Assembly: GCA_001783215.1 (NCBI GenBank)
Contig: MFRA01000001.1
Location: 157,449-221,448, forward strand
DNA: 64,000 bases
Source: Candidatus Magasanikbacteria bacterium RIFOXYD1_FULL_40_23
GTDB taxonomy: Bacteria > Patescibacteriota > Patescibacteriia > Magasanikbacterales > GWA2-37-8
Direction of reading: 5' to 3'
In this document: piece after piece, positions 32,375 through 59,978 of the stretch
Numbering within the stretch: the first letter of the stretch is position 1
Layout of the letters: each line of letters opens with the position of its first letter
Program-made: the position numbers and the translations under genes
Notes under the pieces: model-generated
Told to the model about the DNA's origin: nothing
Database searches by the model: none
The model's input: only the letters and a program-made list of their open reading frames with translations

Positions 32375-33166
32375 TTAGGGCGGGGGCGGAATCACCTCAA
32401 TGTAGATGGATGCTTGATGGGTGGTGTTACCCATTCCATCGAAGCAGGTGAAGGTGTGCATGGCACTAGAGAGCGGCGCGAACTGCGGTCTGGAACCCGC
32501 CACTTCGTACGCCCCGCTTGAGAGCCCGCCTTGAACCGACGGTTGGCTCATGCCACCACAGCTAGTGGAGACGGTGTTGTCACCATCCCAGACGAGCGGC
32601 ACTTGCTGCCCTCTGGGGATTGAGTAATTACCGTCGGAGACAACTGTCGCATTGGTTACCGACATGCGCATCGCTCGGACTGCCACCGACTTCGGCTCTG
32701 ACACTGCTCCGGACTGGTCGAAACAAATCAGGGTATAGGTAGTCGTCCTGAAGAGCGGAACAACGTCCACCAAACCATTCGCAGCTTGAGAGCCGGAAAA
32801 GTCTGTGGCGCCGTTGTTCGCGGTAGCAGCGCAAACAACAACGGAGGCGTTGGTCGTCCAGGTCAACGAGACGGTTTCGCCTACGCGAACTTTGTCGTCA
32901 CTGACCGTGAACTCGACAATGTTCGGCGGTTCTGCCGCAGCGTCGATGATAGTCATACCACCATCGGTGCCAGCGTCATCATCCATAGGCATTGCATCCA
33001 TCTCAGCATCATCGTCAGCAGCTTCGCCACTCGGGTCGAATGCACAGGCAACGATAATGAGTGCTGACGCGACAATACCAGAAATAAACACTGCAGTGCG
33101 ATGCATGACATGCTCCCCCGACCAAAAAGGCCGTAAAATGGTTTTAACTACGTGGCAACTTGCCAC
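32375..33166 (-). CDS. lipoprotein with Ig-like domain (same domain family as 33415..35664); probable true start at 33106
   Basis: GGGGGAG RBS before the ATG at 33106 (MHRTAVFISGIVASALIIVAC, lipobox IVAC). The domain block is ...VSLTWTTNASVVVC...TYTLIC.... High GC. Confidence 0.6.
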   Translation of the reverse strand: MASCHVVKTILRPFWSGEHVMHRTAVFISGIVASALIIVACAFDPSGEAADDDAEMDAMPMDDDAGTDGGMTIIDAAAEPPNIVEFTVSDDKVRVGETVSLTWTTNASVVVCAATANNGATDFSGSQAANGLVDVVPLFRTTTYTLICFDQSGAVSEPKSVAVRAMRMSVTNATVVSDGNYSIPRGQQVPLVWDGDNTVSTSCGGMSQPSVQGGLSSGAYEVAGSRPQFAPLSSAMHTFTCFDGMGNTTHQASIYIEVIPPPP

Positions 33167-33287
33167 CCTAAATTTAACAAAGAATTTCTCTATTAAATTT
33201 TAGGTGGCAAATATATTTTTCAAAGAAATTTTTTTATAATTCGATCTGTATCATCTTCCTAAAAATTATTTAAGAAGATAATTAGAT

Positions 33288-33317
33288 CGTGTGAGCTTGT
33301 TGGTACAAGCTCACACG
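33288..33317 (-). terminator. hairpin H1 downstream of island gene 2 (covaries with H2)
   Basis: CGTGTGAGCTTGttggtaCAAGCTCACACG, preceded by the shared motif tcttcctaaaaattatttaagaagata. Confidence 0.45.
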
Positions 33318-33414
33318 TGGCTGACTGTCGCTTGTCCGATTTGCTTGCGCATTTCAGGCTTGCGAACTTCCGACTGTTGTCATGAGTGTCGGAGAACTCT
33401 CCTGATTCCTGCCG

Positions 33415-35664: not shown

Positions 35665-35687
35665 GAGAATCTCCTTCCGTAACGGTT

Positions 35688-35796
35688 GAGTGAGGCCGAA
35701 ATGGCCACTTGATGGCCACCATGGCCGAGAAACTACTCGGAGCTTACTACTTGTTGCCTCCGAATTAAATAAATATATTTTTTATATTTACTAAAT
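35688..35796 (-). promoter_or_regulatory. island 5' leader module L1 (near-identical to L2 at 36846..36963)
   Basis: About 110 nt and about 92% identical to L2. Contains two TGGCCAT direct repeats about one helical turn apart, a CTCGGAG/CTCCGA hairpin and an AT-rich promoter-like tract. Runs into the GGAAGGAG RBS and ATG of gene 2. Confidence 0.6.
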
Positions 35797-35903
35797 TCGA
35801 AGGCAACTTTTTGATTTTAATTTACTTTGGTTTTTTGAAAAGAACGCTTTTGTTTTTTAAGCTTCTCATCCTCCTAAATTTAATTAAGAAGATAAGATAC
35901 TAT

Positions 35904-35940
35904 CGCGACGTGTTCTCTGTATGAGAGAGAACACGTCGCG
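35904..35940 (-). terminator. hairpin H2 downstream of island gene 3 (covaries with H1)
   Basis: CGCGACGTGTTCTCTgtatgagAGAGAACACGTCGCG. It sits in the same position and after the same aagaagata motif as H1 but has a different stem sequence. Confidence 0.45.
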
Positions 35941-35987
35941 AACGCCTGCCTACACTTCCGATCGCTCGGTTGCGTAGATTGCGCTTG

Positions 35988-36812
35988 TCAGAACCAGCCG
36001 GTCCTGATGCCCAAACGGACACCCAGACCGAATCCGGTCCACCTGCCGACGTACATCGGCTCGGTGCTTACGGCTCCGACCACATCGGCGAACATGCCGA
36101 AGTGTTCCCAGTTGCCGGCCAACCGCAAGCCTGCATCCACGGCACGGAGCTGAACCAGCTCCTCTCCGGGATCGTCGACGTTGGAACAGAAGCTGAGGTT
36201 GACGGTGGGGCCGAGACCGAAGTGATCGCTGCGCTTGTTCAAGAGCGCCGCACCGGCCGTGGCCGCCACCTCGCTCTTGCCACAACCACCAACGCCAACG
36301 TTGGCGCTCCACTCCCAGGAACGGGTGTTGAGCGTCCCGACGAAGCCGGCGGTGAGCATCTCTTCGACGCTCTCGTCGTACCCGTCGCGATCATCGCGAG
36401 GTTGGAGCAGGACGAACCCACTGCCGAACAGGCCACCGCCAAAGCGGTACCTGCTCGTCTCCACCACCGTCACCGGGAACGGATCGAGCGTGACCGCCGG
36501 CGAAACCGCCGGTGCCTCCTCGTCCTTGCCGTTGTAGGTGTGGTTGATCACCTCGACGCACGCCGTGTCGATGTTCTTGACCGTGTGGATGACACCGGTG
36601 ACGGCGTCGACTTGGATCTCGGTGCGCGGCTTGCCCTCGGCACAGTCATCGTCGACCGGGACGACGCTGGTCTCCACCACCACATCGGCGGGAGGATCTT
36701 CGTTGCTCTGGGCTGCGACTTCCTGCGCCATCATGCCGATGAGGCAGATGCTGGCAAGGGTCAACAGACCATTCTTCTTCCACTGCATGTGCGAAACCTT
36801 CTTGACGAACAT
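35988..36812 (-). CDS. secreted protein with beta-barrel OMP-like C-terminus (ends ...GIRTGWF)
   Basis: GAAGGAG RBS before the ATG at 36812 (MFVKKVSHMQWKKNGLLTLASICLIGMMAQEVAAQ signal peptide). C-terminal alternating hydrophobics ending in Phe. High GC. The track began it at 36833. Confidence 0.55.
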   Translation of the reverse strand: MFVKKVSHMQWKKNGLLTLASICLIGMMAQEVAAQSNEDPPADVVVETSVVPVDDDCAEGKPRTEIQVDAVTGVIHTVKNIDTACVEVINHTYNGKDEEAPAVSPAVTLDPFPVTVVETSRYRFGGGLFGSGFVLLQPRDDRDGYDESVEEMLTAGFVGTLNTRSWEWSANVGVGGCGKSEVAATAGAALLNKRSDHFGLGPTVNLSFCSNVDDPGEELVQLRAVDAGLRLAGNWEHFGMFADVVGAVSTEPMYVGRWTGFGLGVRLGIRTGWF

Positions 36813-36845
36813 GGCGAGTTCTCCTTCTTCCAAAAACTGGTTGCG

Positions 36846-36963
36846 TGAGGCCGAAGTGGCCAGTAACGATGGCCACCATGGCCGAGAAACTTCTCGGAGC
36901 TTACTACTTGTTGCCTCCGAATTAAATAAATATATTTTTTATACTTACTAAATTCGAAGGCAA
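36846..36963 (-). promoter_or_regulatory. island 5' leader module L2 (duplicate of L1)
   Basis: See L1. Differs mainly by a 2-nt indel in the spacer between the TGGCCA hexamers. Confidence 0.6.
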
Positions 36964-37001
36964 TGTTTTTTGTTTTGTAAAGAACTTTTCCAATTTTTTC
37001 T

Positions 37002-37110
37002 TTTCACCACTCGCCTTTGCTTTTTGCTTCGGCGTAGCGAAGTGATGAGCAGAAAATTTGGGAGGAAGGGAGTGGTTGGTATTTCTCCAACAAGACTTCC
37101 CTTCCTCTTT
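37002..37110 (-). terminator. island 3' module B (duplicate of module A)
   Basis: ttttcaccactcgcctttgctttttgCTTCGgcgtagCGAAGtg...GAGGAAGGGAGtggttggtatttctccaacaagaCTTCCCTTCCTC, downstream of 37138..38025. Confidence 0.5.
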
Positions 37111-37137
37111 GACGACTGCCTCGAACTACTCGAGGCG

Positions 37138-38025
37138 CTACTTGCGCGTCACCTTGGCCGGCCGCGGGGTCTTCGGCGGCGGACCAGGGTGATTGACGGT
37201 CTTAATCCTGACCGTCACGGGCTTGACCGTTTCTTCTGCGGGCATCCCGGGCAGATCGCTTACCTTGATCCGATCCATCTTCTTGATCTGCTCAACATCG
37301 AGCTTGATGGAGTCGATGTCCTTCCGGACGTCGACCATCTGCTTGTTCAGCTTGCCGATGGCGGTCCACTGACCGCGCTGTCCCTTCTCGAATTTCTCGA
37401 GCTTCTCCACCCGCTCCTCGATCGTGGGCGGATCCACTTCCTCTTCCTGCGCAGCAGCACGCTCCGCACAGGGATCGTCGGCGGGAGCAGCTTCCTCCTC
37501 GGTCTCCTCCTCTTCGGTAGGCGTCACCACAGCCTGAGGCTGAGGCACTTCCTCCACCGCCGCGGGCGCGGGAGCCGGGGCGGCGACCGGCGGCGGAGCG
37601 TTCTCCGTCGGGGCAGCAGCACCGGAACCCTTGCCCACGTTGGTGACCTTGGTGCTGGCGGACTTGGACGAGTCCGAGCCACCGGACTTGAGCAGCATGA
37701 CGACGACGCCGAGAGCGACCAGGATCGCGATGGTGATCGCGAAGACGGTCCACGACTTCTTGTCGTCGGGCGGCGACGGGTCCGGCTGCTGGTACTGCAT
37801 GGTCTGCGGCGGCAGATTGATCTGCGCCGTGGGCGCCGCCGACTGCTGATACTGCGGCGGGAGCGTCGGGGGCGGGAGCGTCGGCTGGGGCGGGCTGCTG
37901 GGCAGCGGACGCTGCGGGGCCGGCGGCATGCCGGGGAGCGGGCGCTGCGGACTGATGGTCCCAGCAACAGGGGCTTGTGACCGAACAGTGGGCGAACCAT
38001 ACGGGGGCGTGGTCTTCTGCGGCAT
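37138..38025 (-). CDS. Pro-rich, single-pass membrane-anchored coiled-coil protein
   Basis: AAGGAG RBS. N-terminal PxxP-rich region, TM helix WTVFAITIAILVALGVVVMLL, Ala/Pro/Glu-rich linker, then C-terminal coiled-coil (EERVEKLEKFEK...). Two alternative high-GC frames were rejected. Confidence 0.6.
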   Translation of the reverse strand: MPQKTTPPYGSPTVRSQAPVAGTISPQRPLPGMPPAPQRPLPSSPPQPTLPPPTLPPQYQQSAAPTAQINLPPQTMQYQQPDPSPPDDKKSWTVFAITIAILVALGVVVMLLKSGGSDSSKSASTKVTNVGKGSGAAAPTENAPPPVAAPAPAPAAVEEVPQPQAVVTPTEEEETEEEAAPADDPCAERAAAQEEEVDPPTIEERVEKLEKFEKGQRGQWTAIGKLNKQMVDVRKDIDSIKLDVEQIKKMDRIKVSDLPGMPAEETVKPVTVRIKTVNHPGPPPKTPRPAKVTRK

Positions 38026-38191
38026 GGCGGTCTCCTTCTGTGTCTACCGAATCGTTGACTCGTGAGTTTCTTTCCCGCCTGATCAAATTGATCTTGCGAG
38101 AATCCACGAGTTGAAATACGTTGCTGCTAACTAATTCAAGGTACTACTTTTTTCTTTTGAACGACCACCTTTTTATCAGTGATAGTTCCAA

Positions 38192-49366: not shown

Positions 49367-49825
49367 TTGTGCTATTGTTTGCCTATGTCCCTTGCCGAAA
49401 ATAAAAAAGCTTTTTTTGACTATGAAATCCTAGAGAAAATCGAGGCTGGTTTAAAGTTGACAGGGCAAGAAGTAAAATCCGCTAAAGCTGGCCAAATAAA
49501 CCTAAAAGGCACTTTCGTCACCTTTCATAACGGCGAAGCCTACGTAACAAACATGCATATAAACAAATACAAAGCCGCAGGCCCTATGCCAGACTATGAC
49601 CCTACTCATTCTCGCCAATTACTCCTACGCAAGAAACAAATCGCTTATTTACAGGCAAAATCCCATGAAAAGGGCTTGACAATTATGCCTTTATCCGTGT
49701 ATACTAAGGGACGATTGATAAAGATTGAAATCGCTGTAGCTAGAGGAAAAAAGTTATACGACAAAAGAGAATCAATCAAAAATCGAGAACTCAAAAGAGA
49801 GCTTGATCGAGCGAGAAAAAACTAA
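49367..49825 (+). CDS. smpB: SsrA-binding protein SmpB
   Basis: ...KKAFFDYEILEKIEAGLKLTGQEVKS...GKKLYDKRESIKNRELKRELDRA is typical of SmpB. The likely start is an internal Met (MSLAENKK). Confidence 0.85.
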   Translation: MCYCLPMSLAENKKAFFDYEILEKIEAGLKLTGQEVKSAKAGQINLKGTFVTFHNGEAYVTNMHINKYKAAGPMPDYDPTHSRQLLLRKKQIAYLQAKSHEKGLTIMPLSVYTKGRLIKIEIAVARGKKLYDKRESIKNRELKRELDRARKN

Positions 49826-49826
49826 A

Positions 49827-50220
49827 GGGGGTGCCGGGCTTCGATAGAGGCTGCTGGCTACGCTGGCATACCGAGGAAGCTCTGATCCTCGTAAATCACA
49901 AAGAGCAACATAATAAGTGCAAACTTGTTATCAAAAGCTAAAGTTGCTGTAGCAAATTTATTTGCTGTCAGAGCTTTCGCTCCGGTAATGGCTTAATAGC
50001 CTGTTACCCATCGCGCCGATAATACTCAGTAATCGAACCGCGGTGTCATTAACTGAGAGTAGCTAATATGGAGCGCCGACTGTATATTAGTGAAGTTACC
50101 CGGCTCGTCAATCCAATTTTCGTCCTCTTTTATCGGGTTGATTAAATAACAAGAGACACTAAGTATGTAGAAGGTTTAGTCAAAGTTATCTACACGCGAG
50201 TTCAACTCTCGCCACCTCCA
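49827..50220 (+). ncRNA. ssrA: tmRNA (ssrA), 394 nt
   Basis: Begins GGGGGUGCCGGGCUUCGA 1 nt after the smpB stop. GCAUACCGAGG...CCUCGUAAA and the tag ORF with GCAAAC resume codon and UAAUAG double stop parallel E. coli tmRNA. T-arm GCGAGuucaacuCUCGC. Acceptor GGGGGUG/CACCUCC with discriminator A. Confidence 0.75.
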
Positions 50221-50303
50221 CTGTGTCGCGCCGAAGCTTTAGCGGAGGCGGACAACAAAATTAAACAGTCGCCTTCGCCTTTTAGGGCTTCGGCGTACCA
50301 AGT

Positions 50304-50849
50304 ATGCGTATATCCCACAAAAAACATAAACCAGAACCAAAACGAACGTACTTTTTTAATTTAGGTATTACCGTACCCGAAGTAATGGTCTTGGATAATG
50401 ATGGAACAAATTTAGGAGTAATGGCACCAGCCGAAGGATTAAAGCTTGCCAAAGAGCAAGAGCTAGATCTGGTTCTTATCAACCCTAAATCTACTCCACC
50501 AGTAGCCAAAATTATTGACTTTGGACAATTCAAATACCAACAAGAAAAAGAAGAACGATTGAAACTGGCTCATGCGCACGTCACCGAGGTAAAGACTGTC
50601 CGACTTTCATTGCGCATCAGTCCACACGATATGGAAATTCGCCAAAATCAAACTATTCAATTTTTAAACGAAGGCGACAAAGTAAAAGCGGAAATAATCC
50701 TAAAGGGAAGAGAAATGCAGCAAAAACCGATGGCTGCCGCTGTAGTAGAAAAATTTATAAACAACGTTAACGCAGCTTTACCAATCAGAAAAGACCAAGA
50801 GATAGAACACCAGTTCAATAAGGTAACTGCCATAATTGCCAAAAAGTAA
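50304..50849 (+). CDS. infC: translation initiation factor IF-3
   Basis: EVMVLDNDGTNLGVMAPAEGLKLAKEQELDLVLINPKSTPPVAKIIDFGQFKYQ... matches IF-3. The infC-rpmI-rplT order is conserved. Confidence 0.85.
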   Translation: MRISHKKHKPEPKRTYFFNLGITVPEVMVLDNDGTNLGVMAPAEGLKLAKEQELDLVLINPKSTPPVAKIIDFGQFKYQQEKEERLKLAHAHVTEVKTVRLSLRISPHDMEIRQNQTIQFLNEGDKVKAEIILKGREMQQKPMAAAVVEKFINNVNAALPIRKDQEIEHQFNKVTAIIAKK

Positions 50850-51519: not shown

Positions 51520-51598
51520 TCCACAAGCACAATCTTGACAAAAACTGCAAAATTAGTAATATATACTCAAAATTAAAACTCCTTAAGGCCCCGACAAT

Positions 51599-51670
51599 GC
51601 GTGGTATAAGGAGGAAACGTACCCTCCTTCGTTTCCTCTCCTCTTACCACGCACTGTCTGGGTCTTTTTG
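51599..51670 (+). terminator. long stem-loop terminator after rplT
   Basis: GCGTGGTAtaAGGAGGAAACGtaccctcctt CGTTTCCTCtCCTctTACCACGC, then ...ggtctttttg. Confidence 0.5.
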
Positions 51671-51746
51671 ATTTAATGATGGCGGATATACAAATAAACA
51701 ACCGCCCAACACATAGTGCTAAGCGGCCAATAATCTTCCCCTTTAA

Positions 51747-53099
51747 TTATTCCTGTTCGGAATGCCAGCGGTGTACCGCCCTTGCCCAAGCTTTTTCAAA
51801 CTGAGGCGTAATATTTTGCGGATTTTCTACCCAGTACAACTGGAACCGATGGTAGTTTACTCTTTTCTTAAACGATTCTTCAAGCACCGCGCTTTGCACA
51901 GGGAATCCCAGACTATACGGCACAGCCTTGCCATATCTATCCAATACATTGTATTTGTCTGTTTTGGATTTACTGATCTGAAAATCTCCTGGGTCGACTA
52001 CCAAAGTAAAACAACCTTTGGCACGCAGTTCGTTTTCACACTCCAAGAGATCTTTCTTGAAATCAAACTCTCTTCGCATAGGCCAGCCACCCAACAAATC
52101 TAGGTTAAACACAGCGTCGCTTGGCCAACCAAAAACATCTTCAACTATGTTCCAAAGCCAAGCATCATCCTGCTTTAGCAAACCTTTCAGATCTACCATT
52201 CCCTCCTCTACCAAATACGGGTAAACTACTTTGTGCATCAATAGCTCCAAGAATTTCGTGGCTGGGGTGTTATACACTCCACCCCACAACAAAGCTCTCA
52301 GCCAAAGAAAGTTTTCCAGGACTTCCGGCTTAAGAACAACAACTTTGTCATCCACTAAATGAGTATAATGCCAAATATCCCATGGATTATCATTGGCAAA
52401 ACTCAAGATTTTACCAAAATTTTCAACTCCATGCCGATTGGCAATCCTGGAGATTTCTGCCAAATCACCCAACATATAACTGGCTGTATCGGCTATCTCT
52501 TGGATTTGCCCACGCAAACCATTGCCCCACACAATTGATTGCACTTCTTTTAGTGTGACGTGAGCATTTAGGCCATGACGCTTACAGAGTTTTCTCCATT
52601 CCTTCCCATTTAGCTGTAACATTTTCTGCATAAACCCATCGTCTTCATCACACATGCTCAACTGTCCAGCCATAGCTTTTTGCTGATTGGCAGACTTCCA
52701 CGAATCTCCACCCGAAAGTAACCACATATCGTGCAAAAGAGCAGCAAGTTGCCCAACAACCAACTCTCGCTCACCCACCCTAACTTTGGCGCCAATCAGC
52801 TGAAATATAGCTGCCGCTAGAAGTGAGTGATTCCAACGAGTATGGCAAAAAGTATGCGGCCCCACAAAAGGATTTGCCGTTTCTCCAATCAAAGCCCAGC
52901 TAATAAGTTGGAGCTGGTTTCTTCCTTTCAAGCTTCTATCCAAGCCTAGCAAATGAATAGCATCTGATAGCAGGCCCGAACTAAAGGAGAAAGATACGCT
53001 CCTATCGAGAGGCAAGACACCCTTTTGAGATACAGACTCACCTGAGAGCAGCGCAATGCCGCTCTCAAGGCCTTTTTTGTCCCTGGTCTTGATTGACAT
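51747..53099 (-). CDS. HD-domain phosphohydrolase (dNTP triphosphohydrolase-like)
   Basis: HD motif pair ...CHTRWNHSLLAAAI... and ...LAALLHDMW.... Confidence 0.55.
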   Translation of the reverse strand: MSIKTRDKKGLESGIALLSGESVSQKGVLPLDRSVSFSFSSGLLSDAIHLLGLDRSLKGRNQLQLISWALIGETANPFVGPHTFCHTRWNHSLLAAAIFQLIGAKVRVGERELVVGQLAALLHDMWLLSGGDSWKSANQQKAMAGQLSMCDEDDGFMQKMLQLNGKEWRKLCKRHGLNAHVTLKEVQSIVWGNGLRGQIQEIADTASYMLGDLAEISRIANRHGVENFGKILSFANDNPWDIWHYTHLVDDKVVVLKPEVLENFLWLRALLWGGVYNTPATKFLELLMHKVVYPYLVEEGMVDLKGLLKQDDAWLWNIVEDVFGWPSDAVFNLDLLGGWPMRREFDFKKDLLECENELRAKGCFTLVVDPGDFQISKSKTDKYNVLDRYGKAVPYSLGFPVQSAVLEESFKKRVNYHRFQLYWVENPQNITPQFEKAWARAVHRWHSEQE

Positions 53100-53171
53100 T
53101 TCGCATTACTCCTCTGGTTGTGAGTTGTAAAACAACAAAAATTGACTAACTATATTATAGCCAATTACAAA

Positions 53172-53201
53172 ACAAAAATCCCACCCTTTGTAAAGGTGGG
53201 A
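53172..53201 (-). terminator. intrinsic terminator of 53222..53731
   Basis: Minus strand: CCCACCtttacaaagGGTGGGattttt. Confidence 0.55.
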
Positions 53202-53221
53202 CCATTGTATTGAAGTTTTTA

Positions 53222-53731
53222 TTACGGAGTTGTGCTAGCAGAAGGGGTGGTGGTAGGGGTAGGAGTAGAAGTTGGACTTGGGGTGGTAGTTGGGGCTGGT
53301 GGAACTACCAATAATTTCCTAGCTTCTTTTAGAGCTGCTTGGTAAGCTCTGTTGGCTGCCAATATAGCGGCTCTATGTTCGGCTTGAGCTTTTTTAACAG
53401 CTGCCTGATAGGCTGCGTTTCTGGCTCTGCGTTCCGCGTCTTTTCTTTTTAATTCTGCTTTTCGCGCTTCAACTTTTGCTTTTCGTTCTGCAAGCAATTT
53501 TTCCTGTTGTTCTTTTTTTGCTTCTCTAGTATTTTTTACTTCTTCCTGCTTTTTTTCCATTTCTATCTTTTGAGCTGTGCGTAAGTTTTTCATCTCTTCT
53601 ACTTTTTTTTCATAAGCCTCTCTGGCATTGATGCTGGTTGTCATAGCATCAGTTTCTTCTGCGCTGACCAAAGAAGGAACAACGGAGAACATGACTGCCG
53701 CCATCAAAAAAATTGATAGAAACTTCTTCAT
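53222..53731 (-). CDS. secreted K/E/A-rich coiled-coil protein with Thr/Pro-rich C-terminal tail
   Basis: Signal peptide MKKFLSIFLMAAVMFSVVPSLVSA. C-terminal tail PPAPTTTPSPTSTPTPTTTPSASTTP. The start codon abuts a leader element. Confidence 0.55.
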   Translation of the reverse strand: MKKFLSIFLMAAVMFSVVPSLVSAEETDAMTTSINAREAYEKKVEEMKNLRTAQKIEMEKKQEEVKNTREAKKEQQEKLLAERKAKVEARKAELKRKDAERRARNAAYQAAVKKAQAEHRAAILAANRAYQAALKEARKLLVVPPAPTTTPSPTSTPTPTTTPSASTTP

Positions 53732-53805
53732 ATACGAAATGAGTGAGAGAAATAATCAAATGTTGTTGATTATTTCCGAGCGAATGAGTATATATGGGCT
53801 TTAGC
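53732..53805 (-). promoter_or_regulatory. ACTCATTYCG leader element abutting the start of 53222..53731
   Basis: Minus strand: cCACTCATTTCattaTATGGGCTaaAGCCCATATAtACTCATTCGCTCGgaaataatcaacaacatttgattatttctCTCACTCATTTCGTAT-ATG. The palindrome is perfect. Confidence 0.45.
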
Positions 53806-54020
53806 CCATATAATGAAATGAGTGGGCGTAGTAATTAAATACGCTTATCATTATATTAAATAAATAAATTTATATTTAAATTTTAACATACCAGCTAGCA
53901 TTTCGCAACTACCTAAATTTTGTAGTAGCTACGAAATACAGACGAAGCTTACGATAGCGGGTGGAGATCTTTTTTTCACCACCTTCTGACTGGCTTCGTC
54001 AATGTTTATCTCCTTTTCAT

Positions 54021-54239
54021 TCATCGGCGCGGGCCACGCATACGCCCAAGCACTGTTACCCTTAGAATCTTATACCACTCACCTACCGGTGGACCGTCTC
54101 GCAAAGCGATATCGCACAAACACTCCCGCTCGAGCTCTTCTAGAAGTTCGGAACTTTCCAATGTCGCTGCAAAAGCCTTAAGGTTGGTTGGATTATTTCT
54201 GTTAGAATCCACAAAGTGACGCTGACCTGTTGAAAGCAT
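54021..54239 (-). CDS. hypothetical small protein
   Basis: AGGAGGA RBS 5 nt before the ATG. 72-aa ORF. Confidence 0.45.
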   Translation of the reverse strand: MLSTGQRHFVDSNRNNPTNLKAFAATLESSELLEELERECLCDIALRDGPPVGEWYKILRVTVLGRMRGPRR

Positions 54240-54435
54240 GGCTGTCCTCCTAATAAAAGTATAGCACTTAAATAAAAAAATTGACAGTGCTTAGGTTATA
54301 TAATAGACTAAAAATATAATTCGATGCGAATATAAGCAATTATTTAATTATAATTATTTACATACGCGTTGAATTCTAAAAAACAAAACGTGTAGGCTTG
54401 ACCCTGCCAAAATGGGTACAGAAGGGTGTCGCGCC

Positions 54436-54756
54436 ATGAATCCCCTAACCCGAGAAGTTAACCCTCCAAGGTGGAGACTTAACCTTGCTAGCGCCTCGCT
54501 CTTCCATAGAGCCAAACCCTTTGCAAATGTTGCTCTGTACGTACTGCTGGTCTCTGGACTGGCCTGCAGCTTCCTCGCCCTTTTTCACCATATGACTACC
54601 AGGCCCGTGCCGACTTTTTTTCACGGCATGAACCATGCATTCATCATCTACCCACAGAACCAGTACGCACTTCTTCCATCCACGATACGCCTACAAGCAG
54701 GCTACGCATCGCACAACAAACGACTGAGAACTACAATCTTCTCAGACAATCATTAA
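54436..54756 (+). CDS. possible small membrane protein (alternatively a structured non-coding transcript)
   Basis: GAAGGGTG RBS-like tract before the ATG at 54436 (MNPLTREV...) and one TM segment. A strong terminator immediately follows. Coding status is uncertain. Confidence 0.25.
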   Translation: MNPLTREVNPPRWRLNLASASLFHRAKPFANVALYVLLVSGLACSFLALFHHMTTRPVPTFFHGMNHAFIIYPQNQYALLPSTIRLQAGYASHNKRLRTTIFSDNH

Positions 54757-54781
54757 AGGCCATTCAATGGCCGTTTTTTTT
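54755..54781 (+). terminator. intrinsic terminator
   Basis: aaaGGCCATTcAATGGCCgtttttttt. Confidence 0.6.
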
Positions 54782-54943
54782 ACTCACGCTCTCGGTATCA
54801 CCGAGGGCAATTTTTTTAATATATGGGCTTTGCATAAAAAATATTAGCTACACTATATTTTCTCATTCATTCAGAAATAGCCAGGCTCAATATTTATATC
54901 TTGCAAGCAGTCTATAAACATCTCACTGTCTATTTCACTCACT

Positions 54944-55030
54944 CATTTCGAAAATACTAAGGTATTTTTCATACACGCTCGTAAATGAAAATAAATTTTC
55001 ACTTATCTCACTTTGCATAAAAAATAAAAA
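54944..55030 (+). repeat. degenerate copy of the leader-element family
   Basis: CACTCACTCATTTCGaaaatACTAAGGTATTTttcatacacgctcgtaaatgaaaataaattttcacttatctcactttgcataaaaaa. Confidence 0.4.
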
Positions 55031-55137
55031 AGCCACCAACCAATCATACTTCCATCTAGTGAAAATATGGTTGGTATGGTGGTGGCTTTTTTGCAAACAC
55101 CCCATCATACACAGATCGTAAACAGATGTTGCGACGG

Positions 55138-55518
55138 CTACTTAACCGGCGCAGACCAAGTATGCACCCACTTGAATCGTTCCAGCAATTGCTTGCGGTC
55201 CATCTCCCAAATGTCCTTCGGGATAGAGACGCCCATCATCCGAACCAGGTCCGTGATCAACAGAATCAAACCGTACTCGATCTTAGACCAATCATCCCTG
55301 GGTTGCGGCTTCTCAAGGTGAGTAATGAGCTCTGCCAAGGCTTCCACAGGCTTACGTCGCAACTTTTCAGCAGCAATGGAAGCCGTCACACTGTCTGCGA
55401 TAGATGGCCCCTGACACAACCGAAGCTCGCGAATGAACATATTTGCATGCGTCTTCACAAGCACAGCAATCGGAACTTTCATTCTCGTAAACAGGCTAGC
55501 ACTGTCTGTTGTGTACAT
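55138..55518 (-). CDS. putative all-alpha NTP pyrophosphohydrolase (MazG-like) protein
   Basis: ...EALAELITHLEK...EYGLILLITDLVRMMG resembles the EExxE...D...L(I/V)YLLRLA blocks of MazG-like enzymes. GGAGAA RBS before the ATG at 55518. The track TTG is at 55545. Confidence 0.3.
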   Translation of the reverse strand: MYTTDSASLFTRMKVPIAVLVKTHANMFIRELRLCQGPSIADSVTASIAAEKLRRKPVEALAELITHLEKPQPRDDWSKIEYGLILLITDLVRMMGVSIPKDIWEMDRKQLLERFKWVHTWSAPVK

Positions 55519-55668
55519 GATGTTCTCCAATTCTATAACCTGCAATGACCATACTATAAAAATACAAAAAAGTCAATGCTGGACAAAAAAACACCGTTAT
55601 TTATGCGGTATTTTTATTGGCGGAGAGTAAGGGGCGAAGTGGAAACTTGAGCTAATATTAATTATTAA

Positions 55669-55745
55669 AAATACCAAGGTATTTTCTTCACACGTTCAGA
55701 AATTAAAATAAATTTTATTTCATTCACTTTGCTTGAAAATAAAAG
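55669..55745 (+). repeat. degenerate copy of the leader-element family
   Basis: ACCAAGGTATTTtcttcacacgttcagaaattaaaataaattttatttcattcactttgcttgaaaataaaagcc. Confidence 0.4.
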
Positions 55746-55787
55746 CCGCACCAGTGTATTGGCGCAGCCGTAACGAAAAACGAATGA

Positions 55788-56252
55788 TCAATCATCGGGG
55801 TTGAGCCAGTAACGAAATTGGCCCAATCCTTCATGGTCGTGTGTGATGAGAACAAAATTTCCACGGTTTGTTCCCCACAGCCACCATTCTCTTTTTTTCG
55901 CGGTAGAACGAATATTATTTTCCATGTCTCCCACAATGCAGAGTGCTAGCGCTAAGGGCCAGCGTCCCTTGTTGTGGTCGGTGCCTACAGCAAGCCCGTT
56001 CATATCCAAAACTTTATACACAACATCACTCCCGGGATTCCGTTCAATCTGATAAATAATGATGTTACCCTGACCATCTTTCCACTCATGATAATCGTCC
56101 GTACCCAATCTTATCAAAGATTCCATGGTCAGCTTAAGCAGTCTTTCGGGGATTACTCCGTTGGGCTTGTTTCTTTCCAGTAGGAAATCAACCCGTTCCT
56201 TACCGCCTCTGATTTCGTTTATGACTTCATCACCATGCAGAAGTTTGGACAT
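55788..56252 (-). CDS. hypothetical protein
   Basis: AGGAGGA RBS 4 nt before the ATG. 154-aa ORF. Confidence 0.45.
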   Translation of the reverse strand: MSKLLHGDEVINEIRGGKERVDFLLERNKPNGVIPERLLKLTMESLIRLGTDDYHEWKDGQGNIIIYQIERNPGSDVVYKVLDMNGLAVGTDHNKGRWPLALALCIVGDMENNIRSTAKKREWWLWGTNRGNFVLITHDHEGLGQFRYWLNPDD

Positions 56253-56499
56253 GTTTCCTCCTGGCTGGATTTAACAACATTAAACGTGTTTTGTCAATGT
56301 ATAATCCGTTATTTCCCTCCACGCAAAAAGAAGGCTGCATACGGAACCTGCTTTTTCGCGGGGTGTATGGGACGACGTGGGAACTTGTTTAAACAAAAAC
56401 AACCCAGTTATATGAGTTGCTTTTGATAATACCGCGAATGTTTTTATCGACATCTTATTAGGCGTTTCGCGGTGGTACGCCAGTAATCGTTGTGGAACT

Positions 56500-56781
56500 C
56501 TAGTCGTTAATGATAATCTCGAAGTCACCCCAGTCAATCGGCTTACCATTATTAAGGTGATGGGGATTGTCGACGAGTTCCCCGTTTTTCCATTGCCGCC
56601 AAGCACCTTCAGCCATGCCGACCATGGTTCCTTTTATGACTAGCCAGTTACCATTGTGACCGAGCGGATTGGGAATGCGCTCCAGCTCAAAGTCACCTGG
56701 CCCCCTTTCCACCTTGCTTCTGTTGGGAGAAGAAGCGTCAATAAGTTCCCAGACTCGCTTGAGTGTTGCCTTCATGACCAT
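56500..56781 (-). CDS. hypothetical protein
   Basis: AAGGGG RBS before the ATG at 56781 (MVMKATLKRVWELI...). The track began it at 56844. Confidence 0.4.
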   Translation of the reverse strand: MVMKATLKRVWELIDASSPNRSKVERGPGDFELERIPNPLGHNGNWLVIKGTMVGMAEGAWRQWKNGELVDNPHHLNNGKPIDWGDFEIIIND

Positions 56782-56893
56782 GGCCCCTTGTGTATTTGTT
56801 GGTAACCGATGAATAAAGATAACATAAAAAAATATTAAAGTCAATGATACTAAAACAAAAAACAGCCTTTTATGAAAGCTGCTTTTTGTTTAG

Positions 56894-56914
56894 AGCGGGT
56901 CGGACGGGACTCGG
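56894..56914 (-). repeat. duplicate of the tRNA-Asp 3' end (GCGGGTCGGACGGGACTCG) 166 bp downstream of the tRNA
   Basis: 19 to 21 nt are identical to 57079..57099. A candidate att-site remnant. Confidence 0.4.
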
Positions 56915-57079
56915 CTTCACCTCTCACTCGCTTCCACTCGTTCGGGTTAGCCACCACCTCGCGGTCGCACTCGCCTGCCTGCGTCGTGCGACATCGCTCC
57001 GGCGTTCTCGTCCCGACGTAATGCAAACTATTGCATTACTTCCGCCCACGCAAAAAGAAGGCTTTCGCCTTCTTCTTTT

Positions 57080-57153
57080 GCGGGTCGGACGGGACTCGAA
57101 CCCGCAACTTCTGCCGTGACAGGGCAGTGCTCTAACCAGTTGAACTACCGACC
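57080..57153 (-). tRNA. tRNA-Asp (GTC)
   Basis: Minus strand: GGGTCGGtaGTTCAACTGGTtAGAGCACTGCCCTGTCACGGCAGaagtTGCGGGTTCGAGTCCCGTCCGACCCg. 7-bp acceptor stem, anticodon loop CUGUCAC, T-loop GGTTCGAGTCC. CCA is not encoded. Confidence 0.8.
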
Positions 57154-57339
57154 CAAATTGTTTGATTTATCCTGTTAAATGCTGCTTTGCAGACCCCGCC
57201 TTGCGGGGATTTAACAGGATGAACAAGAAAATTATACAAAAAAACCAAGAATATGTCAACTTTACTGTTCTGGCTTGAATATTATGAAGGGATAGGCTAG
57301 GATAGATTTTACATACTCTCATCCAAGGAAAAACATCCA

Positions 57340-57639
57340 ATGGACAAAATCGTCAGAACAAAACTTGCTCCTTCAGCTCATTCCGAAGAAAAATGGTCCG
57401 CCGAAATGCGACCTACATTGCTAGGGCTACTGGTCCACGCAACCCTTAGAAACCACCCGGATAACAACGGTGGAACCATTTACTTCTACTTCATCCCCCG
57501 TTCAGAAATCTTGGATGCCCTGCGCCTAAACAACCCTACGGCTCACGCCTACTGGGAAAAAGAGATGGCCACACACTTTGGCCTCATGTTCTACACAGAG
57601 GAAGCTACTCTCTGCGAAGACTTGAGAGCGCAATACTAA
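57340..57639 (+). CDS. hypothetical small protein, paralog family member A (YWE motif)
   Basis: AAGGAAAAA RBS. Shares ...SEILDALRLNNPTAHAYWEKE with paralogs B and C. Confidence 0.5.
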   Translation: MDKIVRTKLAPSAHSEEKWSAEMRPTLLGLLVHATLRNHPDNNGGTIYFYFIPRSEILDALRLNNPTAHAYWEKEMATHFGLMFYTEEATLCEDLRAQY

Positions 57640-57658
57640 GCACCGTGCCAACTTTAAC

Positions 57659-57747
57659 CAAAGGTGCTCTGCGCAACAAATCCCGTTCGCATCACCTGAT
57701 TTATTTCTAAATAATTGGAAACAAATCAGGGCGAACGGGATTTTTGG
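57659..57747 (+). terminator. structured 3' element R1 (extended hairpin + U-run), family of three
   Basis: aaaggtgctctgcgcaacAAATCCCGTTCGCatCACCTGATTTatttctaaataattggaaacAAATCAGGGCGAACGGGATTTttggttt. Confidence 0.55.
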
Positions 57748-57877
57748 TTTAACGAAACCATATCGCGTAACGTCATTTGAAACGCGACGCTTTTATAAAT
57801 TTTAAGAACAGATAAGGTCTTGAAAAATAATTATATATGGTATATAGTGGCGTCAAATCAAATCGGAGATTCGCACC

Positions 57878-58150
57878 ATGAAAATCACGCTAAAGAACCC
57901 TCGTTTCAGCTGTCGTAAACCCGACGGCCATAGAGATTGCAAACATGCAGATCAAGGCATGACTCAAGAACTTGCCGGACTAAGCCTAGAAGCATCCTTG
58001 CAAAGCTGCGGGCACTATCGATGTGACAGAGATACTTTGCTTAAGGCAATAGAGCTGAGAAACGGTCTCAACTCACCCTTGTACAAGTATTGGGAAGACT
58101 TCTTGCCCACCGACCAACCTATCCACTTTCCACAAGAAGAAATTGAATAG
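57878..58150 (+). CDS. hypothetical small protein, paralog family member B
   Basis: Shares ...RDTLLKAIELRNGLNSPLYKYWEDF with A and C. Confidence 0.5.
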   Translation: MKITLKNPRFSCRKPDGHRDCKHADQGMTQELAGLSLEASLQSCGHYRCDRDTLLKAIELRNGLNSPLYKYWEDFLPTDQPIHFPQEEIE

Positions 58151-58180
58151 GAGCTAGTCAGTTAGCATAAAATAACGCTC

Positions 58181-58278
58181 ACAAAGGGTGCTCTCCGAAC
58201 AAATCCCGTTCGCAACACCTGAAATATTTCTAAATTTTTGGAAGTATCTCAGGGAGGATAGCGAGCGGGTTTTTGTTT
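58181..58278 (+). terminator. structured 3' element R2
   Basis: acaaagggtgctctccgaacAAATCCCGTTCGCaaCACCTGAaatatttctaaatttttggaagtatCTCAGGgaggataGCGAGCGGGTTTttgttt. The outer stem is kept with a wobble. Confidence 0.55.
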
Positions 58279-58351
58279 ATACCCACTCTTGTAAAAAATA
58301 GATAAAATCTTTATACTAGCAACCAAGACAACAACCTTTGAGGTACAAACC

Positions 58352-58885
58352 ATGGAACCTGCCACAAAAGTTTTGGTAAGGTTTATCAAGGCTCCAAACG
58401 GTCATTCGCGCCTAAGAGAAGACATGCGCAACGCTCTAGTGGGCGTTATGGTAAAAGCAGTCCCAGATCCCAACTGCTTTATTATTGAAAACAGCAATGT
58501 CTTACTAGAAGCGATCGCAGCGCAGCGCCCTCCGAGCGTACACTTCTACTGGGAAGAAGTTCTTGCCCATGACTCAAAGCCTATTTTTCTAGGACGAAGC
58601 GAGTGCGAACCTGTCTACGGCTTCCAACTAGAGCTTATCACACCTCTGCCCAGCACGAGCCTTCATAAAGAAATTTGCAGAGCCTGTGTCGGTTTAAAAA
58701 TCAGGCTAGAGCCTGGAGCTTTTGAACCACAGAAAAATGGCTTCTACGCCAACCTACTGATGGTAACTGACCAACTACAACAACACAATCACGTGGTCTT
58801 CTCGCGTTACGTGGCTAACTTGCCTACCACAGAGACTGTTCGCACATTGTTCTTGCCAGCCCATACATACAAAATCTTGCCATAG
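58352..58885 (+). CDS. hypothetical protein, paralog family member C (N-terminal paralog domain + about 90-aa extension)
   Basis: GAGGT RBS. Shares VRFIKAPNGHSR...LLEAIAAQRPPSVHFYWEEV with A and B. Confidence 0.55.
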   Translation: MEPATKVLVRFIKAPNGHSRLREDMRNALVGVMVKAVPDPNCFIIENSNVLLEAIAAQRPPSVHFYWEEVLAHDSKPIFLGRSECEPVYGFQLELITPLPSTSLHKEICRACVGLKIRLEPGAFEPQKNGFYANLLMVTDQLQQHNHVVFSRYVANLPTTETVRTLFLPAHTYKILP

Positions 58886-58899
58886 ATATGGCTACGCAT

Positions 58900-58995
58900 C
58901 AAAAGGTGTTGCGTTACAACCCCGTTCGCACCACCTGATTTACTCCCAACACATTGGAGGTAGATCAGGAGGATGACCGCGAACGGGGTTTTGTT
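58900..58995 (+). terminator. structured 3' element R3
   Basis: caaaaggtgttgcgttacAACCCCGTTCGCacCACCTGATTTACTCCcaacacattGGAGGTAGATCAGGaggatgaccGCGAACGGGGTTttgttt. The compensatory t-to-c / a-to-g change relative to R1 preserves the outer stem. Confidence 0.55.
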
Positions 58996-59036
58996 TACAG
59001 GAGATATTTTTTATTATATGCTTATATAGTATTAAA

Positions 59037-59624
59037 ATGCTAAATAGACCTATGTCCGAAACAAAATTTACACCGCCAGAAGCGCAGGCTAAACCAAAAA
59101 CCGAAAAAGAAGACCTTCTCAAGAGACTGCTCTCTCCAGAAATAAAAAAATTAATACTTAGCATAGCTTACAAATACAGCGTCAAACCAAGCGATGCGGA
59201 AGATGTTGTGCAAACTGTTCTATTTAATGCCTACAGAGCTATTTCTGAAGGAAGATTTGATGAAAAAGATGCAAAATTAACAAGTTGGTTACACACAATA
59301 ACAAAAAATGAATGCATAAATTTATTTAGAAAAGAAAATCGACTATCAAAAAACGACTTAACTGCCGTAGAATTTGACGACAATAGAGTAGAAGGCCACC
59401 TTCCTACAAGCGTAGATCATATAGAAAACAAAGAAAAAGATGAGGCACTGCAAGGTTTATTAAGGAAATTAAAACCAAAACAACAAGCAGTTATGGAGTT
59501 GTACTTACAGGGATACAGCCAAAAAGAAATTGGAGAAAAACTAGACATGCCGACTAATACAGTAGGCGTCCAAACACACTATGCAAAAAAGCGAATGCTA
59601 GAATTGCTAGAAGAAGAGAAATAA
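59037..59624 (+). CDS. RNA polymerase sigma-70 family (ECF-type) sigma factor
   Basis: Region 2-like DAEDVVQTVLFNAYRAISEGRFD...SWLHTITKNECINLFRKE. Region 4 HTH LKPKQQAVMELYLQGYSQKEIGEKLDMPTNTVGVQTHYAKKRM. Confidence 0.75.
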   Translation: MLNRPMSETKFTPPEAQAKPKTEKEDLLKRLLSPEIKKLILSIAYKYSVKPSDAEDVVQTVLFNAYRAISEGRFDEKDAKLTSWLHTITKNECINLFRKENRLSKNDLTAVEFDDNRVEGHLPTSVDHIENKEKDEALQGLLRKLKPKQQAVMELYLQGYSQKEIGEKLDMPTNTVGVQTHYAKKRMLELLEEEK

Positions 59625-59663: not shown

Positions 59664-59978
59664 TTATTTCTTTTCGGTAGTAGAAACAACAGTATTTTCT
59701 ACAGGGGCACCCACATTGCGCCATCCGCTCATCATACCCGGACCGAAGTTACCGTTGCGGTACATCATGTTATATCCGCCATAATTGTCGTATCCCCAAC
59801 CGCCAAAATAACCGCGTAACACACCCAATTTATATCCAAAGCAAAAAACTATAATAAGCACTACTGCGCCTATTACCCAATGCAACAAAGACTTGTGGCC
59901 CCAACCACAACCCGTTTTGCCTCCCCCACAACAACTTCCACCTTCTTTGTTACCACAACCCATTTTGTCGTCACACAT
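59664..59978 (-). CDS. Gly/Cys-rich small membrane protein
   Basis: N-terminal CxxC/GG-rich region, one TM helix (HWVIGAVVLIIVFCFGY), and a Gly/Tyr/Asn-rich tail. Confidence 0.45.
   Translation of the reverse strand: MCDDKMGCGNKEGGSCCGGGKTGCGWGHKSLLHWVIGAVVLIIVFCFGYKLGVLRGYFGGWGYDNYGGYNMMYRNGNFGPGMMSGWRNVGAPVENTVVSTTEKK

Follow-up and report, generated by a model that had tools for sequence, protein, structure and literature searches.

The window, by which we mean the whole 64-kb stretch of DNA that was analyzed, comes from a CPR genome of the Magasanikbacteria type and contains a compact array of three small genes on the plus strand. It is bounded on the left by a tRNA-Asp (GUC) gene on the minus strand (57080..57154) and on the right by a conserved gene for an ECF-type sigma-70 family factor (59037..59624, plus strand), with a PEP synthase gene also among the surrounding genes. 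As the preliminary description of this locus had it, genes A (57340..57639, 99 aa), B (57878..58150, 90 aa) and C (58352..58885, 177 aa) each carry a ribosome-binding site, which reads as the GGAG/GAGG type in the sequence and lies 7–8 nt upstream of the ATG. The GC content of the array genes is about 10 points above that of the neighboring genes. The order A-B-C-sigma is identical in all loci of related genomes that were compared, and the synteny with housekeeping genes is stable even in distant relatives; in one locus (L251) a B-like and a C-like gene occur without a hairpin element between them. A GC-rich stretch to the left of the tRNA gene (56895–57025) has no significant structure.

Promoter-like sites of the sigma70 type, all on the plus strand, precede each of these genes. 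They were found at 57275..57303 for gene A (TTGAAT-17-TAGGAT, conserved in L008 and L009), at 57820..57848 for gene B (TTGAAA-17-TATAGT, conserved in five loci) and at 58289..58317 for gene C (TTGTAA-17-TATACT, conserved in four loci). With 8/12 matches, the site of gene A falls under the threshold of the scanner and was taken from the sequence and the alignment. The sigma gene has a site at 58994..59022 (TTTACA-17-TATGCT) that overlaps the tail of the last hairpin; in L253 this promoter is conserved, but lies about 150 nt away from the element. Orthologous loci retain the hexamers in otherwise variable surroundings, and the tRNA-Asp gene has a perfect TTGACA-17-TATAAT promoter (57259–57231). 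The promoter scan revealed no promoter inside the 3′ ends of the ORFs, and a candidate ECF promoter inside the hairpin element (GAAC...CGTT) was rejected because its spacing is wrong. Since a conserved promoter precedes every gene, we regard the array as three separate promoter-ORF-terminator units. By the same token, control by read-through is not needed for the expression of any downstream gene.

The three proteins share an N-terminal domain of approximately 85 aa. Protein A consists of this domain only, while C represents the full-length form of the family with an additional C-terminal domain of about 95 aa; B is the most diverged paralog, and four cysteines are conserved among its orthologs. 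The alignments contain two common blocks, xPxxH..M..L.G...A and LL.A(I/L) ... YWE. The relationship of A and C is significant in pairwise comparison (BLASTP E 8e-7) and against the profile of the C family (hhalign E 4e-8). B is not significantly similar to its paralogs in BLASTP-type pairwise comparison, but matches the C-family profile (hhalign E 1.1e-5, probability 81.5%) and, weakly, the profile of A (E 1.4e-3). The earlier claim of three tandem paralogs is thus borne out by profile-profile comparison, with the link between A and B being the weak one. Searches of Pfam, PADLOC and PHROGs with A, B, C and the neighboring small proteins gave no matches, and neither a sequence nor a fold match to the family was found in the PDB. 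Two profile matches to giant proteins (P0012, P0013) were discarded as repetitive low-complexity artefacts. The small minus-strand proteins of the island and a 105-aa protein of L253 show no detectable kinship to A, B or C (best E 0.07). The structure of C was modeled by AF2 with a pLDDT of 89. The proteins are soluble and mildly acidic to neutral, and the modeled barrel is weakly SH3/KOW-like. A, B and C are an ORFan paralog family of very narrow distribution.

Downstream of each gene lies a homologous structured RNA element (R1, R2 and R3), in agreement with the preliminary description. The three copies have a 57-nt core, in which the other two are 84% and 70% identical to R1, and the motif CCCGTTCGCANCACCTGA occurs three times against 0.05 expected occurrences. 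The predicted folds of R1, R2 and R3 have energies of -42.6, -42.7 and -48.6 kcal/mol and z-scores of -8.3, -6.2 and -5.6, respectively. In their common architecture an A-tract leads into two helices, an outer one of 13 bp that is rich in G+C and an inner one of 15 bp, and a U-tract follows; AACAAA precedes the hairpins, and the stem is directly followed by GGG(A/G)UUUUUGUUU in all copies. All three lie on the plus strand. The R1 hairpin (57678..57749, U-tract 57741–57749, CM score 122 bits) is built from the outer helix AAAUCCCGUUCGC/GCGAACGGGAUUU, a 4-nt bulge on the 5′ side and the inner helix CCUGAUUUAUUUCUAAAU/..AAAUCAGG. R2, of type b (58201..58278, U-tract 58270–58278, 110 bits), is distinguished by a GGGAGGAUA bulge on the 3′ side and by G.U pairs, and R3, of type c (58918..58996, U-tract 58989–58996, 100 bits), by a GGAGGAUGACC bulge on the 3′ side. 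In the locus alignment R1 is followed by a second small hairpin with a T-run on the same strand (UCGCGU...ACGCGA, 57763..57794), which L006 and L008 lack and in which L005 and L007 show compensatory changes. R4, a possible fourth and much more diverged copy on the minus strand (55010..55122, 26 bits, E 6e-5), has the same architecture with a different sequence and lies 3′ of a 135-aa minus-strand gene (55545–55138). Hairpins of 25–30 bp are common at terminators of this genome, so that the length of the element is not special. Its primary sequence, on the other hand, is strongly conserved (CCGUUCGCA.CACCU, UUGG, GCGARCGG), beyond the needs of a plain terminator. At the gathering thresholds of Rfam 15 the window yields only tRNA and tmRNA, and the elements match no family. 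A permissive search of 56300–59100 returned nothing above 22.6 bits, and the best Rfam match to the element itself, mraW RNA, lies on the other strand (20.5 bits, cut-off 50). The element is a modest new RNA motif, most likely a transcription terminator and possibly a switchable one, and not a new kind of system.

Selection acts on the RNA structure of this element. The compensatory change from U-A in R1 to C-G in R3 and the G.U wobbles of R2, on which this conclusion was originally founded, are present, and the covariation holds when more copies are added. In a CM-fitted alignment of 17 copies from related contigs, 97.3% of the cells pair on the sense strand (slid controls: 32–54%), and double changes occur in 10 of 28 pairs, a number reached by none of 500 shuffles. 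The same 17 copies contain 50 G.U cells versus 7 A.C cells, which identifies the sense-strand RNA as the selected form. The antisense strand pairs in 88.2% of the cells, and CM scores are 85–127 bits for the sense and 38–64 bits for the antisense strand.

All 17 strong copies are found in sense orientation just 3′ of a stop codon, in seven different gene contexts. Within the 64 kb the strong copies are confined to the three at the array, with one weak copy besides. The element is not private to the A/B/C proteins: in other CPR contigs it also closes unrelated genes, including compositionally foreign ones (L249, L250). The subtypes a, b and c are position-specific and orthologous across genomes, which implies that they are old and have been inherited vertically. 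In L253 the C-like protein is only 28% identical to C, and its element still scores 86 bits. Scans of genome contigs and viral contigs with 14-nt patterns produced chance single matches only (L010–L208). In viral contigs, a 19-nt pattern gave chance matches without a CM match, and a long pattern gave no match.

The segment upstream of each hairpin, the box, had been described as conserved and single-stranded. It is conserved, but in its exact form occurs only in R1 (AGGUGCUCUGCGCAAC, 57662..57677); the R2 box has one extra G (AGGGUGCUCUCCGAAC, 58185..58200), and that of R3 reads AAAAGGTGTTGCG (AGGUGUUGCGUUAC, 58904..58917; all plus strand). It also need not be single-stranded, as its sequence complements the 5′ arm of the hairpin (GUUCGCAUCACCU in R1) and resembles the 3′ arm (AGG..GCG.AAC), which makes it a candidate antiterminator strand. 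In every strong copy, box and 5′ arm can form an alternative hairpin of approximately 12 bp that excludes the terminator. It appeared in the minimum free energy folds of the 13 copies (of 15, R1 and L005_a not among them) whose transcripts were folded after truncation at the 5′ end. Its z-scores range from -2.2 to -3.9 in 16 of the 17 copies, a set which includes the divergent L249, L250 and L253 copies with boxes of different sequence. The L250 copy forms 11 perfect base pairs (GGUGGUGCGAG/UUCGCACCACC). Among 46 control sites in the window that consist of a hairpin and a T-run, R1 ranks second, R3 fifth, R2 tenth and R4 eleventh. In the duplex-shuffle test R1 alone is significant (p 0.0005; the others p 0.07–0.37). 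In R4 the alternative hairpin is not significant in the z-score test (p 0.10). The box side varies (GCGCAAC, CCGAAC, GCGAA, GCAGAAC, GCGAG) but keeps its complementarity, whereas the arm side, which also belongs to the terminator, is invariant for this reason, so that the alternative helix varies on the box side only and shows no true two-sided covariation. A likeness of the box to the boxA of rrn operons and phage lambda (UGCUCU..AACAA) was rejected, as the UGCUCU part varies (GUGUUG, GCCAAG, GGUGCG) and the paired parts stay. Taken together, the arrangement of box and arm has the topology of an antiterminator, with moderate support only.

The reading that we favor, at a probability of roughly 0.6, is that of tandem-duplicated, separate units with lineage-specific terminators that have a terminator/antiterminator topology. 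An ancestral gene of the full-length, C-like form would have been duplicated in tandem, with A and B retaining the N-terminal domain only. Each unit, consisting of a sigma70-type promoter, a ribosome-binding site, a small ORF and a Rho-independent terminator, would be transcribed independently. R1–R3 would act as sense-strand RNA, namely as the long two-helix intrinsic terminators of a lineage-specific family, and judging from their sequence and fold they very probably do terminate transcription. While the transcript emerges, box and 5′ arm (GUUCGCAnCACCU) could join in the hairpin of about 12 bp and so exclude the terminator. The element would then probably set or tune how much transcription runs on into the following unit and, at the end of the array, into the sigma gene. 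The original suggestion that the element is more than a terminator survives in this restricted form, but not in its variant of a recombination site. That the alternative hairpin functions as a regulatory switch is a tentative proposal, and the odds are somewhat against it. With predicted energies of -9 to -13 kcal/mol, compared to -32 to -45 kcal/mol for the terminator, it is far weaker and would need a stabilizing factor or a kinetic window. No aptamer-sized conserved structure, leader peptide or gene for a known RNA-binding antiterminator that could serve as a sensor was found, and known antiterminator protein domains were likewise not detected in the scanned ORFs of the neighboring genes; a protein of a new kind might take this part. 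Since the box starts 18–35 nt after the stop codon and not at the constant distance of about 20 nt given previously, it is unlikely to be coupled to the terminating ribosome. A dedicated factor might also bind to the hairpin of box and 5′ arm, and one of the A/B/C proteins is a possible candidate given their weakly predicted SH3/KOW-like barrels, but we consider this improbable.

The most serious competitor is that R1–R3 are plain constitutive terminators which were copied with their genes, the box being conserved for an unrelated reason or decaying slowly and its complementarity having no function. We regard this as unlikely, if clearly less so than any of the other alternatives. Their anatomy as terminators is complete, each gene has its own promoter, other terminators of the window reach similar z-scores, and the alternative hairpin is weak, with a duplex test that is non-significant in five of six lineages. 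However, the complementarity of box and arm has been kept in copies with altered boxes (L249, L250, L253_m and L253_p), the element is conserved far better than the proteins, as the L253 copy illustrates, and the tandem second hairpin behind R1 suggests that R1 is leaky.

Quite improbable is a role as a small RNA derived from the 3′ UTR or as a processing or stability module, in which the box would be the seed or cleavage site and the hairpin would serve as terminator and protector of the 3′ end. Known small RNAs of this type have a conserved unpaired segment followed by a terminator hairpin and a U tail, and the element resembles them in all three features; three sibling copies are present at the locus. 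The divergent copies, however, retain the complementarity in cis and not the sequence of the box, no candidate target was found, and the 3′ ends of the ORFs contain no internal promoter.

The preliminary description suggested for A, B and C an array of immunity proteins or antitoxins. Such arrays for a polymorphic toxin or defense system would fit tandem small paralogs that diverge fast, but the proteins lack Pfam, PADLOC and PHROG matches, no toxin, Rhs, CDI or nuclease gene was found adjoining them, and their neighbors are the tRNA-Asp, ECF sigma and PEP synthase genes in a housekeeping synteny that is stable in distant relatives, so that we consider this role very unlikely. Even less credible is a REP- or MITE-like dispersed repeat that landed behind these genes by chance. 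Its occurrence after unrelated genes in other contigs and its highly conserved primary sequence would be compatible with a repeat, but not the restriction of strong copies in the window to this locus, the uniform sense orientation at gene ends (17/17), the old, vertically inherited subtypes and the failure to find copies in viral contigs; the copies examined in other contigs also show neither target duplications nor terminal repeats beyond the hairpin. Finally, an integron-like cassette array (CALIN) with the hairpins as attC sites, to which the co-oriented small ORFans with imperfect inverted repeats of 70–90 nt (..AAC start, GTT.. end), the elevated GC content and the copies behind foreign genes had pointed, is largely refuted by the 3′ end GTTTA in place of GTTRRRY, an R-box complementarity limited to AAC/GTT, the better pairing of the coding strand, the lack of any tyrosine recombinase or integrase domain in those ORFs of the flanking ~13 kb that were scanned, the conserved promoter of every gene, the fixed gene order across genomes and the paralogy of the genes.

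To our knowledge, no CPR organism is genetically tractable, and gene regulation in these bacteria is therefore almost completely unexplored. A covarying terminator family with conserved sequence and a competing hairpin, as favored here, offers a concrete and testable cis-element for one CPR clade; it can be used as an Rfam-type annotation model and is a candidate part for transcription studies in vitro. If the switch is real, attenuation-type control would operate at the 3′ ends of genes in a lineage with minimal genomes. If it is not, the locus would be a clean case of promoter-gene-terminator units that evolve by tandem duplication, with the terminator outlasting the protein in conservation. 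Should the hairpin bind a dedicated factor, conditional termination at the three elements would be under protein control, in a cascade that meters read-through into the ECF sigma gene. RNA and protein would then constitute a new antitermination pair that is private to one CPR lineage, and the element would double as a portable 3′ expression module, attached also to genes of foreign composition (L249, L250).

Among known systems, the element is similar to intrinsic terminators with an A-tract, whether bidirectional or ‘L-shaped’. It has a G+C-rich stem with a U-run after it and a complementary A-run before it, it is sense-oriented right after the stop codon, and selection is on the pairing rather than on the stem sequence. 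Unlike these, it has a long stem (28 bp, two helices, fixed bulge), a sequence that is strongly conserved across paralogs and genomes whose proteins are less than 30% identical, and a conserved upstream partner segment. With integron attC sites and CALIN arrays the locus has in common co-oriented small ORFans, each followed by an imperfect palindrome of 60–90 nt with AAC...GTT flanks. However, attC sites need R″ RYYYAAC and R′ GTTRRRY, whereas the element has GCGCAAC, CCGAAC or GTTAC at its 5′ end and GTTTAAC, GTTTATA or GTTTACA, with T in position 4, at its 3′ end; the strand preference, promoters, fixed order and paralogous genes of the array and the failure to find an integrase are further differences. 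Several terminator-like cis-regulatory motifs in Rfam are comparable in size and hairpin shape, none of them at gathering score. Terminator/antiterminator attenuators, such as the RAT of the BglG/SacY/LicT family and riboswitch platforms, share with the element a weaker hairpin, overlapping and incompatible with the terminator, in which the terminator's 5′ arm is paired to an upstream segment. The element differs from them in that no sensor was found, be it an aptamer, a leader peptide or a gene for a known RNA-binding antiterminator, and in its lack of sequence similarity to RAT. Moreover, attenuators are located in the 5′ leader, whereas the element lies at the 3′ end of a gene, with the promoter of the next ORF in between.

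Genes A (99 aa, 57340–57639), B (90 aa, 57878–58150) and C (177 aa, 58352–58885) are plus-strand ORFs of a Candidatus Magasanikbacteria (CPR) genome, with a tRNA-Asp (57080–57154, minus strand) upstream of A. The next gene after the array encodes an ECF-type sigma factor (59037–59624, plus strand) and is followed by a convergent gene for a small Cys-rich membrane protein and by PEP synthase. That the three genes are tandem paralogs, as proposed in the preliminary description, was confirmed: A and C are significantly similar already as single sequences (E 8e-7). B yields no significant single-sequence alignment with A or C, and its relationship emerged from profile-profile comparisons supplied with orthologs from searches with an A+B+C profile (B-family versus C-family, E 1.1e-5, probability 81.5%; B versus A, E 1.4e-3), which also linked the A and C families (E 4e-8, probability 95%). 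The first ~85 residues represent the unit common to all three proteins, to which C-like proteins add a domain of ~95 residues. All three are soluble (pI 5.9–7.7), and the family is tiny: the A+B+C profile matched 9 of 5.8 billion proteins and 8 of 1.8 billion representatives, two of the latter being repetitive artefacts. Searches of Pfam, PHROGs, PADLOC and PDB sequences with the family proteins gave nothing. The tandem arrangement had suggested an immunity-protein or antitoxin array, a reading discarded for want of both a toxin neighbour and a family match.

One and the same repeat is found 3' of each gene, the 57-nt cores of R2 (after B) and R3 (after C) being 84% and 70% identical to that of R1 (after A). 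The 64 kb contain the signature CCCGTTCGCANCACCTGA three times, where 0.05 occurrences are expected. R1, R2 and R3 fold into long hairpins, with energies of −42.6, −42.7 and −48.6 kcal/mol and z-scores of −8.3, −6.2 and −5.6, respectively. In each element an A-run (AACAAA) precedes an outer helix of 13 bp (AAAUCCCGUUCGC/GCGAACGGGAUUU); a fixed 5' bulge of 4 nt (AnCA) separates this from the inner helix (15 bp), whose loop contains UUGG, and an optional bulge on the 3' side comes before the final UUUUUGUUU. Rho-independent terminators have this anatomy. The 3' bulge distinguishes the subtypes a, b and c; these are kept by position across genomes, which marks the three copies as paralogs of old standing, not products of recent gene conversion. 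The elements are conserved far better than the coding DNA of their genes, and detectable sharing between the coding DNA of A and C is limited to 19 nt surrounding the YWE motif. Long terminator hairpins of 25–30 bp with other sequences are also present in this genome, which makes length by itself an unremarkable trait. Two very long hairpins followed by T-runs, at 28273–28349 and 51587–51664 (27–29 pairs; −26 and −44 kcal/mol), show no sequence relationship to R1–R3, and the genome seems to make regular use of long terminator hairpins.

Selection on the structure, also claimed in the preliminary description, was assessed with 17 sense copies, namely R1–R3, their orthologs, two copies from the more distant genome L253 and one from each of the metagenome contigs L249 and L250, located by long-pattern search. 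In the covariance model (CM) alignment of these copies, the fitting of which favours the structure, standard pairs fill 97.3% of 473 cells, both sides have changed at 10 of 28 pairs (reached by 0 of 500 shuffles) and the covariation score is 0.277, compared with 0.179 in shuffles; slid controls pair at only 32–54%. An alignment of 15 copies made with MAFFT only is 96.1% paired, with 6 covarying pairs. Of the cells, 50 are G.U and just 7 are A.C; therefore, the pairing of the sense strand would drop to 88.2% on the antisense strand. CM scores are likewise 85–127 bits for sense and 38–64 bits for antisense, and the form under selection is the sense-strand RNA. Neither of the two refuting outcomes named in the preliminary description, loss of supported covariation on adding copies and a non-significant profile-profile comparison of the proteins, was observed.

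A site scan detected sigma70-like sites on the plus strand for B (TTGAAA-17-TATAGT, 57820–57848), C (TTGTAA-17-TATACT, 58289–58317) and the sigma gene (TTTACA-17-TATGCT, 58994–59022), and A is preceded by a weaker site (TTGAAT-17-TAGGAT). All four are kept in orthologous loci where the adjacent sequence is variable, and the sigma promoter persists in L253 even though ~150 nt separate it from the element there. Directly 3' of R1, some lineages have a small hairpin with a T-run (57763–57794, UCGCGU...ACGCGA), which is replaced by the compensatory GCCGAGC...GCUCGGC in L005 and L007 and is missing in L006 and L008. Judging from the predicted promoters, A, B and C would be independent transcription units.

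The conserved box 5' of each hairpin had been described as single-stranded. It does lie outside the hairpin, but it is complementary to the 5' arm and provides a competing upstream helix. In transcripts cut before the 3' arm, on which this alternative fold was examined (13 of 15 copies, win_R1 and L005_a falling outside), the MFE structure has three paired segments around a loop of ~7 nt (AGGUG/CACCU, (U)GCG/CGC(A) and AAC/GUU). The alternative hairpin draws on nucleotides from the upper end of the outer helix and the lower end of the inner one, so that it and the terminator are mutually exclusive. Its stability exceeds that of dinucleotide shuffles in 16 of the 17 copies (z −2.2 to −3.9), including those with a differing box: L249 (GUGGUG...CGAAC), L253_p (GCGAA), L253_m (UGC-A-GAAC) and L250, where GGUGGUGCGAG/UUCGCACCACC forms 11 perfect pairs. 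In a duplex-only shuffle test, R1 alone is significant (p 0.0005; others p 0.07–0.37), and among 46 hairpin-plus-T-run control sites in the window R1 ranks 2nd, R3 5th, R2 10th and R4, a possible distant fourth copy, 11th. The alternative helix is without two-sided covariation, its arm side not being free to vary. Given these limits, we regard a terminator/antiterminator topology as present and consider that the alternative hairpin may function as an antiterminator. Coupling to the terminating ribosome is argued against by the variable stop-to-box distance (18–35 nt). At the elements neither an aptamer nor an Rfam match was found as a sensor for such a switch, and the neighbouring ORFs scanned encode no antiterminator protein of known type. 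The box is preserved as a complement in cis rather than as a sequence, which speaks against the 3'-UTR sRNA previously considered.

The element is not private to the A/B/C family. It also stands at the end of a minus-strand gene for 105 aa in L253 (92 bits), a 265-aa ORFan containing HExxH in L249 (966–1763, minus strand) and a 110-aa ORFan in L250 (4535–4864, minus strand; 65% GC on a contig of 25–40% GC), whose products have no detectable relation to A, B or C; R4 (55010–55122, minus strand), a weak match with 26 bits and E 6e-5, is situated after a further small gene, again unrelated. All these copies are in sense orientation. The L249 and L250 ORFans are strongly GC-rich with AT-rich promoters upstream, and the element may mark slots expressing compositionally foreign genes. 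L251, another genome, contains a tRNA-Asp, an 88-aa B-like gene and a C-like gene without a sigma gene, and the 30-nt gap between the paralogs lacks the hairpin. The pair of small and large paralogs is therefore older than the elements, which are not obligatory partners of these proteins.

The orthologous contigs L001–L009 have identical genes in identical order, adjoining the same sigma and PEP-synthase genes. In L253, where the C-like protein shares 28% identity with C, the order is SmpB, IF3, L20, several small minus-strand genes, tRNA, C-like gene, sigma, Cys-rich protein, PEP synthase and ligase, paralleling smpB, tmRNA and infC of the window. The locus is thus of old age with preserved synteny, and is no array of shuffled cassettes. 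A recombination site of the integron attC/CALIN type fails on several counts: the core site is GTTTA, not GTTRRRY, pairing favours the wrong strand, a scan of ORFs from the ~13 kb on its flanks showed no recombinase, and the mutually paralogous genes have fixed order and a promoter each. REP/MITE elements are dismissed because the copies are few within the 64 kb, in one orientation only, of position-specific orthologous subtypes and not found in viral contigs.

Several further features of the window were observed. The Cys-rich protein (59664–59978, minus strand; 101–106 aa, conserved) has one transmembrane helix, a Cys/Gly-rich N-terminus (MCDDKMGCG..CCGGG..CGWGHK) and no Pfam match; its gene is always placed between PEP synthase and the sigma (or C-like) gene, in the window as well as in L251 and L253 and probably in L003 and L005, and it could act as a partner to the ECF sigma factor. 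The genes smpB, tmRNA (tag ANLLSKAKVAVANLFAVRAFAPVMA) and infC are consecutive at 49367–50849, and the order smpB...infC recurs in L253. From infC to the sigma gene (51700–58900), both strands carry entirely small ORFans (GC 0.45–0.50 versus 0.36–0.39 in flanking core genes), each equipped with a promoter-like site and a terminator of its own, and all lacking a Pfam, PHROG or PADLOC match; L253 has a similar group at the equivalent position. The 3' end of the tRNA-Asp is duplicated exactly over 19 nt (56895–56913 and 57080–57098), enclosing a GC-rich stretch of ~125 nt without significant structure (z −1.3) and a terminator; the arrangement resembles the att-type scar that an integrated element would leave on its loss. 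A GC island of ~6 kb (32000–38100, GC 0.50–0.64 versus 0.35–0.40 in the genome), without Pfam matches, codes for secreted proteins (749 aa, 33415–35664, and 263 aa, 32375–33166, both minus strand) that bear Ig-like TVTATP repeats, and could be a horizontal transfer or an assembly chimera. Within it, near-identical ~50-nt segments (35753–35807 and 36910–36965), both with a terminator-like hairpin (AGAAACUnCUCGGAGCUUACUACUUGUUGCCUCCGAAUUAAAU...), bracket about 1.1 kb.

The best account of the array is that of three promoter-gene-terminator units in tandem, built from an ORFan paralog family, each of which would end in an intrinsic terminator from a family that is lineage-specific, conserved in sequence and provided with a competing upstream hairpin. 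The element would represent a new mechanism only if a dedicated factor for the alternative hairpin exists. Compared with known systems, it is a terminator/attenuator-type RNA absent from Rfam 15. In a clade in which regulation is almost wholly unexplored, it offers a cis-element that is both usable and open to testing.
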